64,000 bases of DNA from an uncultured Alphaproteobacteria bacterium (GCA_944393175.1 CALXZH010000032.1:5812-69811); one strand, 5' to 3'; counted from the first letter of the stretch, positions 44,119 to 55,797 are shown. The notes: a model not told the origin generated them from the sequence alone. A program made the numbers and translations.

Positions 44119-46158
44119 ATGAATAAAACAGGTTTAAAAGCTTTTGTTTGCAGTTTTTCTTTCTCCTTGCTGGCATTTGTGGCCGCAGGAAGAGAGTTTT
44201 TTGCTGTATCTCCCTCTGATGATGAACTGATTATTCCAAGCAAAAATATCTCTTTGTTTTTTAAAGATATTTCCCCTCAAGCTCTTGGGAATAAGACTGT
44301 TAAAATCAAAAAAATTGCCCTTAACGTTCCGGCAACGCCTCCTCCTCAAAACAATAAAATTGAGGAGAAAGTTCAAATAGCCAATTCGGTCAGTACAACA
44401 GCTAAATCGGATTTAATTCCGCTGACTTTCGGCAGTAGTGATATTGAATTCAACGTTGAAGAGCCTGTTAAAGAATTAAAAATTGCAAGCAAAGACGTTG
44501 AAGCCAAATCGCCATCACAAGAGCCGGCTGCAAAACAAAAAATTGTTCAAAATTTTGATGAGATAATCTCGCATAAGCCTGAAATTCCCAATATTTCTTC
44601 TGAGCATGAGGATAATGAGGTTAATATCGAAAATCAAAGTGACGAACAAAATCTTGAAATTTCCCCCTTTTCAAACAAAATTTTGCAGGCTAACGTCCAA
44701 ATTTTAAGACCTAATGCAAAAAATGTGCAGAAAGTTTTGCATCCTGATGAAAAGAGCTCAGATGTCACTGTAGAAGACAAAGAAAGCAAGCAAAAAGAAA
44801 GCAAACAAATTATTGTTGCAGAAAAATCACCGGATACGGCTCAAGAAAATATTTCAGCCGAAACAAAAACCGAAGAAACCATTGTTGCCGACGCAACGAA
44901 TGAAACATCTTTATCTGAATTTGATGCACAACAAGAAGCCCCAAAGTCAATCACTTCTGCGGATAATACTACGCACGATGTTGAACTGCTTATTCCTGAA
45001 GATGCGGAAACAACAGCAAGAATCCCCACATTTAAGGTGGCTCGAGCCAAAGGAAACCCAGAAAACGCCCTTTTAGCAAAGGATATTTACGGTGCAGGAG
45101 AACCTGAGAACCTGCTTATTCCGATTGAAAAAGATACAATCAGCGCAGGAAATCAGACCGCTAAAGTTGTTTCTCACCCTGAAACAGACAAGTTAGCTAT
45201 GCTTAACAAAAAAGCCTCCATAAAAAGTATGGAAAAGGCCGATGCGTCAGTAAAAGACAGTACTTCCCCTGAAGGAGGCACTATTTGGCAGACTATGGCT
45301 GAAAAAAGCGCAAAAGGAAAATCTTTAGCCCAAAAATCAAATTTTGATAAAAATTACAAGAGCGAAAGCACTGAAAAAAACTCGAATACCGACACCGAGG
45401 AAAAAATCAGTAAAGTCTTGAATTCGCCTCGAATTAAAGGGTTGCAAGACGACGGCAAAATTCAATTAGCTTCAGAAACCGTAGACAATTTGCTTATTCC
45501 TATTCCGGAAGACATCCTCAATGATCCGAATTTAACACCTCAATTAGTTTCTTCCGAGCAAAATAAAGGGCTGGAAGAAAAACTTACCGAAGAAGAAAAT
45601 AAGGAATATCAAGCACAAGATGCCAATAAAAGCAATACGATAAGCAATACACAATCAGCTGACAAAGAAGACAAATCAGGTATTTTGCAAAGCATCACTT
45701 CTATTTTTTCTAAAACGGCAGAAAATATCAAAACTACAGTCGATAAGGGAAGTAAAACAATTTTTGGCAAAGCAAAAGAGATAACATCTTCCAGACCAAA
45801 TGTCTCTACCGGAAAAATTTTGCCGACAGAAATCCGCCTGGCTTTCCAACCAAACAGAGCTGAAATTTCGGGCGTAACTCTAAAATGGTTGCAAGCTTTT
45901 GCAAATAAAACAATAGAAGATAAAAATGCAGGTCTTGAAATCAGAATAGATGGCAGCAGTTCTTACGAATTGCAACAAAAAAGGCTCAATCTTTTAAATA
46001 ATATTCTTGCAAGCAACGGAGTTGATTTTAGCAAGATAAATACAGTATTTACAACCAGAGAACCAAATTCTTTTATTATCAGAGCGGTTCGGCTTAACAA
46101 CGCAAACGGAGGCATGGAGGAAGATAATGATTGGCAAGACTATTATAAGGTGTGGTAG
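44119..46158 (+). CDS. Secreted protein (679 aa) with an E/K/S-rich low-complexity body. Its C-terminal roughly 110 aa resembles an OmpA/MotB-like peptidoglycan-associated fold (tentative). First gene of the pil operon.
   Basis: RBS GAGGGG. Signal peptide FVCSFSFSLLAFVAAGREFFA. The C-terminal pattern RLAFQPNRAEIS...LQAFANK...LEIRIDGSSS...LQQKRLNLLNNIL resembles OmpA-C topology. Confidence 0.4.
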   Translation: MNKTGLKAFVCSFSFSLLAFVAAGREFFAVSPSDDELIIPSKNISLFFKDISPQALGNKTVKIKKIALNVPATPPPQNNKIEEKVQIANSVSTTAKSDLIPLTFGSSDIEFNVEEPVKELKIASKDVEAKSPSQEPAAKQKIVQNFDEIISHKPEIPNISSEHEDNEVNIENQSDEQNLEISPFSNKILQANVQILRPNAKNVQKVLHPDEKSSDVTVEDKESKQKESKQIIVAEKSPDTAQENISAETKTEETIVADATNETSLSEFDAQQEAPKSITSADNTTHDVELLIPEDAETTARIPTFKVARAKGNPENALLAKDIYGAGEPENLLIPIEKDTISAGNQTAKVVSHPETDKLAMLNKKASIKSMEKADASVKDSTSPEGGTIWQTMAEKSAKGKSLAQKSNFDKNYKSESTEKNSNTDTEEKISKVLNSPRIKGLQDDGKIQLASETVDNLLIPIPEDILNDPNLTPQLVSSEQNKGLEEKLTEEENKEYQAQDANKSNTISNTQSADKEDKSGILQSITSIFSKTAENIKTTVDKGSKTIFGKAKEITSSRPNVSTGKILPTEIRLAFQPNRAEISGVTLKWLQAFANKTIEDKNAGLEIRIDGSSSYELQQKRLNLLNNILASNGVDFSKINTVFTTREPNSFIIRAVRLNNANGGMEEDNDWQDYYKVW

Positions 46159-46253
46159 CCTTGGTAATAAGTTATGGCTTACGCTTGATTATTTATTTTT
46201 CAATATGTATTATAGGTAAAAATATGACAAATTACGGATTAGGATATAAAAAT

Positions 46254-46919
46254 ATGAAAGTTAAATTTCGCTTAAGCGTCGGATTGCTTAGTGTATTTGC
46301 CGCCAGTGGTTGTTTAGGAACATTAAACAACCCTGTACAGCTTCCTCCTGAAGCTGTTGAGTGCGATGCCGACGGGAACAGAGTTTGCACGGAATCTAAT
46401 GTCTCTTTTCAGACAAGTTCTGCTCCTCAGGACAGCGAATTTGTTAATTATACTAAAGTTGCGGCCGATTATAAAGAATATGGCGAGAGAGCGCCAAGAG
46501 ATCAAAATATTGTGGACGGCGGCGCAGGAAGCAATATTTCCGCAGCTGTTCCGCCTACTGTTGAAAGCGAGGTAATTGATTATGAGGCTGAAGTTCAAGA
46601 AAACGAAGGAACTTCTTCAGGAAACAGCGGCGAATACAGTGCAGAAGATCCGGTTGAAGATTGGCTGGCCGAAGAAGGACAGACATTAAAAGCTTTACTC
46701 ACAGAATGGAGTGAACGTGCCGGGTGGAGATTAGTTTGGAATTCTAACCGTAATTATACCTTAACTGCAGGAGCTATGTTTAGAGGGCGCTTTGCTGACG
46801 TGAGTGCTGCACTCATAAGGGCTTTTGCCAGAGCGCAACCGGCTCCGATTGCAACATTTTATAAAGGTAACCGCGTCTTGGTTGTTGAGACAATGGAGGA
46901 TGAGAATGCTTATGAATAA
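46254..46919 (+). CDS. PilL/TcpQ-like pilus-biogenesis lipoprotein (type IVb pilus)
   Basis: Lipobox LLSVFAASGC from ATG 46254 with RBS AGGA. C-terminal GQTLKALLTEWSERAGWRLVW...FYKGNRVLVV is characteristic of the TcpQ/PilL family. Confidence 0.55.
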   Translation: MKVKFRLSVGLLSVFAASGCLGTLNNPVQLPPEAVECDADGNRVCTESNVSFQTSSAPQDSEFVNYTKVAADYKEYGERAPRDQNIVDGGAGSNISAAVPPTVESEVIDYEAEVQENEGTSSGNSGEYSAEDPVEDWLAEEGQTLKALLTEWSERAGWRLVWNSNRNYTLTAGAMFRGRFADVSAALIRAFARAQPAPIATFYKGNRVLVVETMEDENAYE

Positions 46920-54745: not shown

Positions 54746-54834
54746 AAGTTTTTGTAACAAAAGATTAAATAATTTTTATTTATTTTTGTGATAAACTCAG
54801 AGCTAGTTTGAATTCTAAATTTGATGAGGATGAT

Positions 54835-55797
54835 ATGGTTAAACTCAGTGAGGTTTTGTTTTCGGATATTTATATTACACCTGAAAAAGTTGCTTATATT
54901 CCGGATAATGTTACAGCAAACGGATTGGAAGTTTTAAAAGCTGACGATTTTGATAATTTTTTTGAATTGTTAGAACAATCTTGGGATGGTTCAACTCCAA
55001 GTTACTCCGTGCTCTATGACGGCGTTTTTTATCGTGTCGAAAGGACTGTATCAATCTATGGTATTCAATATTGCGCCCGCAGAATGCCAAGACAAGTGCC
55101 TCCTTTTAATAGTTTGGGATACCCTACTGAATTGTCACAATATTTGCTTTCACTCAGTAATGCTTCCGGTCTTATTCTTTGCAGCGGACCGACAGGTGCC
55201 GGTAAGACAACTACTATTTCCAGTTTAATGAAAGAATATTTAACCATGGAAGGCGGGTTTGCTTATACCATTGAAGACCCGACCGAAATGCCTCTAGATG
55301 GCGTTTATCACTCAATTGCCGGTGGCTTGGGATTATGCAAACAAACCTTACCGCCTAACGGAAATTGGGGTGAAGGCTTAAAGTCGGCTCTTCGTTCAAA
55401 ACCTCGTTTTATTATGGTAGGTGAGATTAGAACACCTGATACCGCCAGTGAGGTGTTACGTGCGGCAACCTCCGGTCACCTTGTGTTGTCCACAATTCAC
55501 GCTAACAATATTACCGATGCTATTAACTCTGTTGTTAAGTATGCTTCATCAACTTCTATGAGCGAAGAATTGGCCTATGACTTGTTCTCACGCGGAATGT
55601 TGGGCGTTTTGCACCAAACATTAATCGGTGTGAAAGATAAAAAACCTTTGGTTAGTTATCTATTTACGAATCCAGATTCTACCAAAGGCGACCAAGTCAG
55701 AGGTATTATTAAAGGCGGTAAGCTTAATTTGGCTACATCTATTGAAACACAAATGACCAGAATGAGCCGCGGTAAGAATATCTTTCCTGATTTATAG
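54835..55797 (+). CDS. PilT-family retraction-type ATPase (BfpF-like), a second ATPase in the pilus cluster
   Basis: RBS GAGGA. Walker A SGPTGAGKTTTISSL. PilT-like Asp/His box MVGEIRTPDTASEVLRAATSGHLVLSTIHANN. About 320 aa. The track's TTG start at 54808 is an alternative. Confidence 0.75.
   Translation: MVKLSEVLFSDIYITPEKVAYIPDNVTANGLEVLKADDFDNFFELLEQSWDGSTPSYSVLYDGVFYRVERTVSIYGIQYCARRMPRQVPPFNSLGYPTELSQYLLSLSNASGLILCSGPTGAGKTTTISSLMKEYLTMEGGFAYTIEDPTEMPLDGVYHSIAGGLGLCKQTLPPNGNWGEGLKSALRSKPRFIMVGEIRTPDTASEVLRAATSGHLVLSTIHANNITDAINSVVKYASSTSMSEELAYDLFSRGMLGVLHQTLIGVKDKKPLVSYLFTNPDSTKGDQVRGIIKGGKLNLATSIETQMTRMSRGKNIFPDL

Follow-up and report, generated by a model that had tools for sequence, protein, structure and literature searches.

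A probable machinery operon of a BFP-like type IVb pilus with an empty prepilin slot, next to a VirB-type T4SS, in uncultured gut Alphaproteobacteria

Introduction

BFP of EPEC is encoded by bfpA-G-B-C-U-D-E-F-P-H-I-J-K-L on pMAR2/EAF plasmids, and the R64 thin pilus (pilI-V) is equipped with the PilU peptidase, the PilT transglycosylase and shufflon-associated PilV adhesins. R64 is not known to carry a PilT/BfpF-like ATPase. The pilotin-like family represented at the locus described here has TcpQ as its founding member. TCP (Vibrio cholerae) and CFA/III/Longus (ETEC) are without a retraction ATPase and depend on the minor pilin TcpB/CofB (PMC5207764).

A 64-kb stretch of DNA (64,000 nucleotides, hereafter the window) from an uncultured Alphaproteobacteria bacterium was analysed. 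We consider, with a probability of about 0.72, that a retractile, BFP-like type IVb pilus of uncultured low-GC gut Alphaproteobacteria has its machinery operon in the plus-strand segment 44119-55797, that 54146-54745 does not encode the filament subunit and that the pilin cassette has gone from the operon. By sequence, the nearest studied system was BFP of EPEC (30-37% identity), and the gene order was R64-like.

Gene Content and Comparison with Known Systems

The genes from 44119 to 55797 are all co-directional, the nine operon ORFs are intact, and the 3' limit is a bidirectional terminator hairpin. The features are the following.

43792-44118, no strand: divergent control region between VirB2a (minus) and ORF1 (plus), with the conserved block CCTGTAACAAAAAATTCACAG at about 43919-43942
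44119-46158, plus: ORF1, 679 aa, first operon gene, upstream of the TcpQ-like gene in 52/52 loci
46224-46919, plus: TcpQ/BfpG/PilL-like lipoprotein (PF10671, 60.9 bits, cut-off 27)
46912-48525, plus: PilN/BfpB-family secretin with a lipoprotein-type signal (TIGR02520, 268.7 bits; PF00263, 57.6 bits)
48541-49818, plus: PilO/BfpC-like bitopic inner-membrane protein (PF06864, PAP_PilO, 67.1 bits, cut-off 26.7, full profile)
49808-51334, plus: PilP-like secreted protein, 508 aa, with a coiled coil, in the position of R64 PilP/BfpU
51341-53005, plus: assembly ATPase, BfpD/PilQ-like (PF00437, T2SSE, 221.9 bits; 37% identity to BfpD, E 2e-100)
53020-54141, plus: GspF-family platform protein, BfpE/PilR-like (PF00482, T2SSF, 87.5 bits, two stretches)
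54146-54745, plus: pilin-fold protein whose N-terminal tail is basic and variable, with a single transmembrane helix and without class III signal peptide
54746-54834, plus: empty slot, an 89-bp spacer, reduced to the promoter-like region of the BfpF-like gene (TTGTAACAAAAGATTAAAT...)
54835-55797, plus: BfpF/PilT-like ATPase, 320 aa, putative retraction motor, aligning end to end with BfpF
55811-55846, no strand: terminator hairpin, 16-bp stem between T and A runs, shared with a convergent gpt-like gene

In addition to BfpD, the locus proteins resembled BfpG (32% identity, E 8e-18), BfpB (30%, full length, 571 aligned positions), BfpC (23%, E 2e-14), BfpE (33.5%, E 2e-72) and BfpF (32%). The relative order G-B-C-(U)-D-E-...-F is that of BFP, a dedicated retraction ATPase is predicted at the locus as in BFP, and the pilins of relatives fall in the Bundlin Pfam family. 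Unlike BFP, the locus is chromosomal and alphaproteobacterial, is without BfpP peptidase, BfpH transglycosylase, BfpI/J/K minor pilins and BfpL, and adds the 679-aa first gene, an anchored pilin-fold gene and the pairing with a T4SS; bfpA leads its operon, whereas the pilin of the relatives follows the platform gene and the window has none. With the R64/IncI1 thin pilus, SPI-7 and PAPI-1 the locus has in common the order PilL(TcpQ)-PilN-PilO-PilP-PilQ-PilR-PilS, and also the PilN-family secretin (matched best, among plasmids, by bfpB and PilN-family genes, IncI1 plasmids reaching 29.5% identity), the physical association with a type IV secretion machine and, in relatives, pilins of the PilS Pfam family. 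In contrast to R64, PilU peptidase, PilT transglycosylase and PilV/shufflon were not found at the locus, and the I-type/Dot-Icm-like machine of IncI plasmids differs from the partner T4SS, which is VirB-type (type IVA).

The plasmids of Bosea sp. ANAM02 (pANAM02) and Thalassospira xiamenensis M-5 share the core TcpQ-PilN-PilO2-hypothetical-ATPase-GspF and a short BfpF-like ATPase (33% identical), and in Thalassospira the cluster is also paired with T4SS genes. Considering that both plasmids carry them, BfpF-like ATPases are not unusual in type IVb clusters. These systems differ from the locus in being plasmid-borne and not chromosomal core genes and in having no member of the anchored pilin-fold family; furthermore, Thalassospira has an A24 peptidase and a pilin within the cluster, and in Bosea the short ATPase comes immediately after GspF.

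The gene order anticipated by the original prediction (TcpQ, PilN, PilO, PilP-like, T2SSE, T2SSF) was thus recovered, with one correction at the 5' end: position 44119, given there as the start of a PilL/TcpQ-like gene, belongs to ORF1, and the TcpQ-like gene ends at 46919 and begins at 46224 according to the gene callers, its lipoprotein signal MKVKFRLSVGLLSVFAASGC beginning at 46254. The same TcpQ-like gene was also called in a related locus (L083). Best by far among the secretin matches was TIGR02520, with a score just under the equivalog cut-off of 287.65, against 111 bits on MshL and 37 bits on GspD. The tetracysteine motif that had been attributed to the GspE-family ATPase could be read in its translation (CPHC...CKFC; T2SSE, 222 bits). 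The C-terminal domain of the PilP-like protein is weak (TIGR03021, 31.9 bits, under the cut-off of 34.65, residues 337-438); this product had no Pfam match, and its gene is the least conserved of the machine genes.

Profile searches gave a type IVb locus. A T2SS locus was rejected, with GspD at 37 bits against 269 for PilN and no GspC/L/M or GspG-K families in the Pfam and NCBIfam searches. A Tad (type IVc) locus was rejected as well: the assembly ATPase obtained 221 bits on GspE/PilB-type models against 41.7 bits on TadA, and in the PDB search CpaF had E 2e-6 against E 1e-22 for PilT.

ORF1, which the original prediction left undescribed, starts with a signal or anchor, contains a long stretch of acidic low-complexity sequence and has a conserved domain of about 110 aa at its C-terminus, where 45 columns are invariant; it had no match in Pfam, NCBIfam or PDB. 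In the control region ahead of it, invariant blocks were seen in an alignment of eight species, and one of the only two exact TGTAACAAAA sites of the window is located there.

The operon is a conserved chromosomal feature of Candidatus Scatocola and relatives, among which the synteny of the entire operon is kept. Its divergent pairing with a VirB-type T4SS, that is, the back-to-back arrangement already proposed, was found in 50/52 related loci. A VirB11 (146 bits) belongs to this T4SS itself; its VirB10 is giant and repeat-bearing, its VirB6 carries fused cell-wall hydrolase domains, and relaxase and coupling protein are lacking.

The Pilin-Fold Protein and the Empty Slot

The product of 54146-54745 is predicted to have a type IVb pilin fold: its Bundlin score was 22.6 bits (cut-off 22.3), and the top 10 Foldseek matches of its AlphaFold model (pLDDT 68) were TcpA, S. 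Typhi PilS and CofA. In this predicted fold, and in the TcpQ family shared with TCP, the locus approaches TCP and CFA/III/Longus, from which it differs in that no large minor pilin was found at the locus and a BfpF-like ATPase is present. The HMM of the family to which the product belongs matches BfpA (E 1e-15), and on this profile evidence the family is homologous to bundlin. It is a distinct and unannotated family of about 100 clusters at 50% identity, with neither a conserved Gly-1 nor Glu5 (117/131 representative relatives are without the G/E5 motif), and canonical pilins surface among its relatives with E values no better than about 1e-9. The window copy has a Gly directly before the helix (GLG/QK), and at this position close relatives have KLD, FDQ, LEQ or TFV. 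The dN/dS of the gene is 0.10-0.16.

Of 56 related species, 51 have canonical prepilin genes between the pilin-fold gene and the BfpF-like gene (one copy in 27 loci, two in 17 and three in 7), with the leader G/RSMVEM and Pfam scores of 53.8 bits for PilS and 46.9 bits for Bundlin. Since these prepilins co-occur immediately downstream, the pilin-fold protein would be another part of the system than the subunit. Judged from its sequence, it is not the major pilin, and it is probably uncleaved and membrane-anchored. With low confidence, we regard it as probably an inner-membrane accessory of the assembly site. Of the "PilS-like prepilin" that the original prediction saw at 54143-54745, therefore, the pilin fold was retained and the role of major pilin was not; Glu5 is absent as stated there, although not merely Glu5 is concerned, the conserved Gly-1 being missing from the whole family.

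The empty slot characterizes the window and its low-GC subclade, where it was seen in 19-20 independent contigs from different samples. No canonical type IVb prepilin (Gly-1, Glu5) was found anywhere in the 64-kb window. Because the 54143-54745 family lacks Gly-1 and the relatives carry separate prepilins, the window would hold a pilus machine without its filament subunit. Major pilins of this kind are abundant and highly diversified (5316 homologues). In low-GC relatives, orphan canonical pilins are located between ABC-transporter genes and serS, and upstream they share about 85-90% identity with the pilin promoter of the cluster. The GC content of the orphan pilin DNA (0.35-0.41) is low, resembling that of the window subclade (0.39-0.42) and differing from that of the pilin-bearing relatives (0.44-0.49). 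A variable, secreted-looking acidic ORF adjoins the orphan pilin. Because orphan cassettes with the same promoter adjoin serS in low-GC relatives, the pilin cassette was probably relocated, with its own promoter, to the site beside serS in the window's subclade; it may instead have been lost, since the species of the window is linked by no contig or sample with the orphan pilin beside serS.

The machine was also searched for other parts. No A24 peptidase was detected in the window by tblastn/phmmer with BfpP and the Thalassospira peptidase or by the motif GxGD[VI]K, nor in 80 related loci by the same three approaches (none within 10 kb at any locus), and the precomputed Pfam annotation of flanking genes in related loci included no Peptidase_A24. 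Neither PilV nor shufflon-type repeats were found in the window, in agreement with the absence of both peptidase and PilV that had been claimed. Searches for a minor or initiator pilin (TcpB/CofB, BfpI/J/K, PilV) revealed in the window neither another pilin-like ORF nor any similarity to BfpI/J/K, and the window has no ORF of the R64-type PilT transglycosylase or PilU peptidase.

The BfpF-Like ATPase

The extra PilT-family ATPase that had been placed at 54835-55797, and noted to occur in BFP, finds its best full-length match in BfpF (32% identity over 316/320 residues, 151 bits, E 8e-48). It is a short T2SSE-family ATPase, without the N-terminal (PilB) extension and without the tetracysteine zinc motif, it has Walker A/B and Asp/His boxes, and it is closest to known retraction ATPases. 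The motifs GPTGAGKTT, MVGEIR (Walker B) and GHLVLSTIHAN (His box) were read in the translation, and QVRGIIKGGK is a degenerate AIRNLIRE-like motif. On pilT_fam it scored 112 bits, under the cut-off of 319, which is that of the type IVa subfamily. The protein is 71-94% identical across 124 species-level genomes, mostly gut MAGs. The product is the putative retraction ATPase of the pilus.

Discussion

Two alternatives concern the pilin. It could be supposed that the cluster is a complete R64/BFP-type one, in which 54143-54745 encodes a PilS-like major prepilin that has lost only Glu5 and is matured by a chromosomal peptidase. The predicted fold with its borderline Bundlin match, the GLG immediately ahead of the hydrophobic helix, the Thalassospira plasmid pilin, likewise without Glu5, and the fact that this is the sole pilin-like gene of the window agree with this idea; nevertheless, it appears quite improbable to us, taking into account that the Gly is unconserved even in close relatives, that about 117 representative clusters of the family have no G-1/E5 motif and that separate canonical prepilins lie directly downstream in most species. 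An equally improbable view is that this lineage no longer has a working pilus system, with the pilin cassette deleted and the other genes left as relics. The lack of a canonical pilin, minor pilin or peptidase within 64 kb would be expected from it, as would the fragmented T4bP genes of at least one related contig (L178), but strong purifying selection persists on the machine genes: dN/dS is 0.02-0.19, at dS >1, in all eight of them among five species of the pilin-less subclade, whose ATPase and secretin proteins are 92-96% identical, the ORFs are intact, and the arrangement is stable across the 19-20 contigs.

The role of the machine could also be read differently. According to one possibility, the second ATPase is DotB/TraJ-like and serves the neighbouring T4SS or another process instead of retraction. 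In the PDB search PilT (82.7 bits) and DotB (73 bits) were not far apart, and NCBIfam gave TraJ 72 bits and DotB 68 bits; the gene is provided with a promoter-like element of its own, and in about 20 related species it stands beside cmk-rpsA and gpt with no T4bP/T4SS genes within 10 kb. We consider it unlikely, however, given the full-length match to BfpF, a gene position that in most species is 3'-terminal in the T4bP operon (in Bosea the gene comes straight after that of the platform protein, as it does in BFP), and a neighbouring T4SS that already has a VirB11 and is VirB-type, not Dot/Icm-type. That the machine is a T2SS-like/TCP-like exporter, whose short piston expels substrates without forming an adhesive pilus, is highly improbable. 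It has a precedent in the secretion of TcpF and CofJ by TCP and CFA/III (PMC5207764), and ORF1 and the acidic ORF by the orphan pilin are uncharacterised and secreted-looking; on the other side, GspC/L/M/G-K are absent and the secretin is PilN-type, not GspD, while the retraction ATPase and the diversified major pilins fit surface-exposed filaments.

Returning to the BFP-like machinery operon, we propose, by homology to BFP and R64, that the PilN/BfpB secretin and its TcpQ/BfpG partner would form the outer-membrane channel, that the PilO/BfpC-like and PilP-like proteins would connect it with the BfpE-like inner-membrane platform, and that the BfpD-like zinc-motif ATPase would drive polymerisation and the BfpF-like ATPase retraction. 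The true subunits would be PilS/bundlin-type prepilins with the leader ...G/RSMVEM, processed by a peptidase presumably encoded elsewhere in the genome; their cassette would have left the operon in the window's subclade, most likely to the serS-adjacent site with its own promoter. The 54146-54745 paralogue would have retained its globular domain behind an ordinary uncleaved membrane anchor and would stay in the inner membrane. A retractile pilus could draw target cells within reach of the T4SS, and the divergent pairing in nearly all relatives fits this.

More tentatively, and still rather doubtful in our opinion, the T4SS and pilus block of about 55 kb might be one integrated contact-dependent delivery apparatus of gut-commensal Alphaproteobacteria, in which the pilus acts as a grappling hook reeling bacterial or host target cells onto the T4SS. 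If this were true, the anchored pilin-fold protein (54146-54745) would be a structural part of type IVb machines not recognised before, such as a base or stop subunit retained in the membrane, and antigenic variation or variation in target range would come from the pilin cassettes, which are hypervariable and relocatable.

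Organization of the Pilus Operon

Nine ORFs, tightly packed or overlapping, run along the plus strand of the window at 44119-55797, and a strong bidirectional hairpin (55811-55846) stands between this operon and the convergent gpt-like gene. The profile searches gave the following assignments:

44119-46158, plus: ORF1, 679 aa, no family
46224/46254-46919, plus: TcpQ-domain lipoprotein (PF10671, 60.9 bits)
46912-48525, plus: PilN-family secretin (TIGR02520, 268.7 bits, cut-off 287.65; GspD just 37 bits)
48541-49818, plus: PAP_PilO protein (67 bits, full-length profile)
49808-51334, plus: coiled-coil protein of 508 aa with a weak PilP-like C-terminus (31.9 bits, cut-off 34.65)
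51341-53005, plus: T2SSE ATPase with CPHC...CKFC (222 bits)
53020-54141, plus: T2SSF platform protein
54146-54745, plus: pilin look-alike, 199 aa (borderline Bundlin match, 22.6 bits, cut-off 22.3)
54835-55797, plus: short T2SSE ATPase (best subfamily PilT, 112 bits, far below the type IVa cut-off)

The gene list of the original prediction was essentially correct, and the scores exclude both a Tad and a T2SS locus. The operon encodes the machinery of a type IVb pilus like the bundle-forming pilus (BFP) of EPEC, with a BfpF-type ATPase, and it is conserved in gut Alphaproteobacteria.

ORF1 had no match in Pfam or NCBIfam, as the whole protein or as halves, and a 10-species profile of its C-terminal domain stayed at noise level against the PDB (best MotA, E 0.39; a hint of OmpA-like P6, E 1.9). 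Its AlphaFold model from the single sequence (pLDDT 59) gave generic IF3-C-like beta-alpha matches with E of at least 0.009. The consensus scan for promoters and terminators remained at background level except for the terminal hairpin, and the repeat search detected neither shufflon-like nor cassette-flanking repeats.

Comparison with Known Type IVb Systems and the Second ATPase

Type IVb pili are chiefly known from enteric pathogens and conjugative plasmids. A tblastn search of plasmids with the secretin retrieved bfpB and PilN-family genes, and direct comparison with BFP (plasmid pMAR2) gave identities of 32% with BfpG, 30% with BfpB, 23% with BfpC, 37% with BfpD (E 2e-100), and 33.5% with BfpE. 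The second ATPase, encoded at 54835-55797, was 32% identical to BfpF over 316 of 320 residues and is thus a BfpF-type protein, in agreement with the extra PilT-family ATPase that had been claimed by analogy to BFP. In gene order (TcpQ, secretin, PilO, PilP, ATPase, platform, pilin) the operon follows R64, as had also been proposed, whereas in sequence affinity and in its retraction ATPase it resembles BFP. Considering that type IVb clusters of Bosea and Thalassospira plasmids also carry similar short ATPases, the extra ATPase is a known option for the class and is unsurprising.

The solved structures nearest to the second ATPase were PilT (82.7 bits) and then DotB (73 bits), and the AIRNLIRE region of PilT was aligned to QVRGIIKGGK. 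The possibility that this ATPase serves another machine was weighed. In about 20 species the BfpF-like gene is located 3' of cmk-rpsA and is followed, as in the window, by gpt, thioredoxin, and VWA/PP2C/kinase genes, and within 10 kb of it neither T4bP nor T4SS genes were present; in several others (L038 and L042-L047) it is succeeded by the pilus operon in inverted orientation. The gene is also preceded by its own promoter-like element. Taking into account that pilT is often encoded away from the pilus operon, these stand-alone copies and the promoter-like element are compatible with a pilus motor encoded outside the operon, and we hold service to another machine to be a minor alternative.

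The cmk-rpsA type of locus is represented by L053, L054, L055, L060, and about 15 more, with the BfpF-like gene around 10001-10960. Three genes at 57068-59953 (plus strand), for a VWA-domain protein, a phosphatase of the PP2C type, and a Ser/Thr kinase whose C-terminal region is multi-TM, form a triad that is syntenic with the BfpF-like, gpt, and thioredoxin-like genes in about 60 of 80 species. Only in the sister species L007 was a VirB2-like gene, 69% identical to VirB2a of the window, seen directly 3' of the BfpF-like gene (about 11158, plus strand).

The Look-Alike Protein and the Canonical Pilins

For the look-alike protein, the top ten PDB hits of an AlphaFold model built from 23 homologues (pLDDT 68) consisted of TcpA, S. 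Typhi PilS, and CofA, and the family HMM matched BfpA (E 1e-15); the protein is therefore a genuine pilin-fold paralogue. The informative search was that of the fold, the sequence search against the PDB giving no match. At the N-terminus a basic variable tail is followed by a single hydrophobic helix; the residue preceding the helix differs by species (G, D, E, V, or K), and no counterpart of Glu5 is present. When 1.84 billion representatives were scanned exhaustively with HMMER, only 132 relatives emerged; about 117 of these share the noncanonical N-terminus and the motif NIRxxYxxxPDYWGL, and canonical pilins surfaced there only at E ~1e-9 or weaker. The gene always comes after the platform gene and is under purifying selection (dN/dS 0.10-0.16).

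In related loci the homologue of the look-alike gene and the BfpF-like gene are 0.7 to 4.9 kb apart, and the extra DNA in this slot consists of one to three tandem genes whose products start ...G/RSMVEMLGVLAIIGVLS. With their Gly-1 and Glu5, these are typical prepilins of the type IVb class (PilS 53.8 bits, Bundlin 46.9 bits), found in 51 of the 56 loci having the look-alike gene, as one (n = 27), two (n = 17), or three copies (n = 7). Among the five loci without them, L049 has the slot occupied by an inverted membrane-protein gene, and L003, L004, L005, and L007 are the nearest relatives of the window (secretin identity 92-94%). The slot of the window (54746-54834) is an 89-bp spacer that aligns solely with the promoter-like region 5' of the BfpF-like gene in other species, and canonical pilins used as tblastn queries had no match in the whole 64 kb. 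The window lacks the true pilin cassette that most relatives have.

The original prediction had taken the look-alike for a PilS-like prepilin. Its pilin-like character was confirmed by fold and HMM, but Gly-1 is not conserved in the family, Glu5 is missing, and separate canonical pilins exist in the relatives. We conclude that the protein is a distinct, unannotated component, probably not processed by the prepilin peptidase; it would be a pilin-fold accessory protein of a new, anchored kind. Measured against the refuting outcome named in the original prediction, a product neither processed nor pilin-like, that reading is half refuted, since the protein resembles a pilin but most likely escapes processing. 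This is the one substantive correction to the original interpretation, the observation itself being largely borne out. The family is unannotated and without prepilin signal, yet its members are fixed operon components; the sole pilin-like gene of the window should not be named pilin.

A protein annotated as "type 4 pilus major pilin" on a Thalassospira xiamenensis plasmid (L002, 18785-19360) has the leader ...RRAG/WGIGSFLL, in which Gly-1 and Trp+1 agree with R64 PilS and position 5 is Ser; pilins without Glu5 thus exist in other alphaproteobacterial type IVb clusters.

With the pilin of one relative as query, 5316 homologues were obtained at E ≤1e-10, among them many singletons with 91-93% identity, and the copy number per locus ranged from 0 to 3. 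A family of this large size and micro-diversity points to diversifying selection acting on the filament subunit; the comparison shows the major pilin to be a cassette that is mobile, multicopy, and fast-diversifying. Among the related proteins P0281-P0400, dozens of singleton clusters were 91-93% identical to one query.

As had been predicted, the cluster has no prepilin peptidase: an A24 peptidase was found neither in the window nor in 80 related loci (tblastn, phmmer, motif), nor, on further contigs, among the precomputed Pfam calls of the genes that lie up to 10 kb from the cluster. Since the pilins of relatives have canonical G/RSMVEM leaders, the peptidase must be encoded elsewhere. The maturation in trans that had been proposed is reasonable, but applies to these real pilins.

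Conservation of the Machinery and Location of the Pilin

A machine without a local pilin could be decaying. One metagenomic contig (L178, 1-5608) has fragmented pilus genes, with an ATPase of 470 aa without Pfam match and a platform gene split into 208 + 168 aa, which may reflect single-strain decay or an assembly error. Against decay, the comparison of the window with four sister species having the same empty slot showed saturated synonymous divergence (dS 1.0-2.7) with dN/dS of 0.02-0.05 for the secretin, both ATPases, and the platform protein and ≤0.19 for the other genes, which argues for a pilin encoded elsewhere. Three canonical pilin variants were located away from any pilus cluster, with ABC-transporter genes on one side and serS on the other:

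L180, 8001-10658: orphan canonical pilin locus beside serS
L193, 5205-8091: the same
L195, 71-2821: the same

The orphan pilin has its own promoter and terminator, and its 80 bp upstream are nearly identical to the promoter and leader of the in-cluster pilin, so the cassette moved as a unit. The GC content of the orphan loci (35-41%) is like that of the window subclade (39-42%) and unlike that of the pilin-bearing relatives (44-49%), and orphan loci and window-type contigs come from the same cohorts. The sample lists of the window variant and two sister variants had no overlap with those of the orphan pilin, and no contig joined the two; all that ties the orphan pilin to the window's species is GC content, cohort, and promoter homology. 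Relocation of the pilin cassette elsewhere in the window's genome is the best-supported reading, though not proven.

Beside the orphan pilins, on their 3' side, there is a variable ORF of 390-633 aa that contains acidic tandem repeats (NEDVKxENVVxQEAFxTAADFDMVQDDV) and has no family assignment.

Pairing with the T4SS

The T4SS is divergent from the pilus operon:

13855-43791, minus: two VirB2-like proteins, VirB4, two VirB8, CagX/VirB9-SPOR protein, TrbI/VirB10 (1789 aa), VirB11

Relaxase and coupling-protein (VirD4) families were found neither in the window nor in the 6 kb past its left end; the stretch left of the window held more large unannotated ORFs and no pilin, peptidase, relaxase, or coupling protein. 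VirB2a, VirB2b, and VirB4 precede ORF1 and the TcpQ-like gene in divergent orientation in 50 of the 52 metagenomic loci with enough flank (TcpQ identity 59-78%), and the 327-bp divergent spacer contains blocks invariant across eight species, among them CCTGTAACAAAAAATTCACAG. The back-to-back arrangement originally described is therefore conserved, which suggests that pilus and T4SS are co-regulated. In the 64 kb the exact 10-mer TGTAACAAAA has just two copies, both plus-strand, one inside CCTGTAACAAAAAATTCACAG (43922-43931) and one just upstream of the BfpF-like gene (54753-54762), and the pilin promoter of relatives carries TTGTAACAAAAT; TGTAACAAAA/TTGTAACAAAAT may be a shared -35 element or regulator site. 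A functional coupling of both machines, and whether the target is a host or a bacterium, is speculation.

At 14836-24091 (minus strand) lie VirB10, whose N-terminal 1400 residues are beta-flower/DUF3659/RHS repeats, and, following it, a protein of 1307 aa built of the same repeats. A 1262-aa fusion (2749-6537, plus strand) joins an M23 peptidase, a VgrG3-like C-terminal (peptidoglycan hydrolase-type) domain, and a TrbL/VirB6 domain with about 8 predicted TM segments. Two cell-wall-degrading domains on VirB6 are unusual and could indicate a bacteria-targeting T4SS or a built-in VirB1 function.

Distribution and Significance

The BfpF-like protein has hundreds of metagenome homologues at 70-92% identity and is present in at least 124 species-representative genomes, almost all of them MAGs from the gut that carry the label Alphaproteobacteria, "Azospirillum sp.", or Candidatus Scatocola. 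NCBI assembly GCA_949282235.1 and 19-20 contigs drawn from several cohorts carry proteins identical to those of the window. Literature searches on this gut alphaproteobacterial group gave nothing on its pili or T4SS. The BFP-like, probably retractile pilus is a conserved chromosomal trait of widespread uncultured Alphaproteobacteria of the human and animal gut, and from its pairing with a VirB-type T4SS a concrete hypothesis can be drawn on the way in which these unstudied commensals attach to other cells or attack them.
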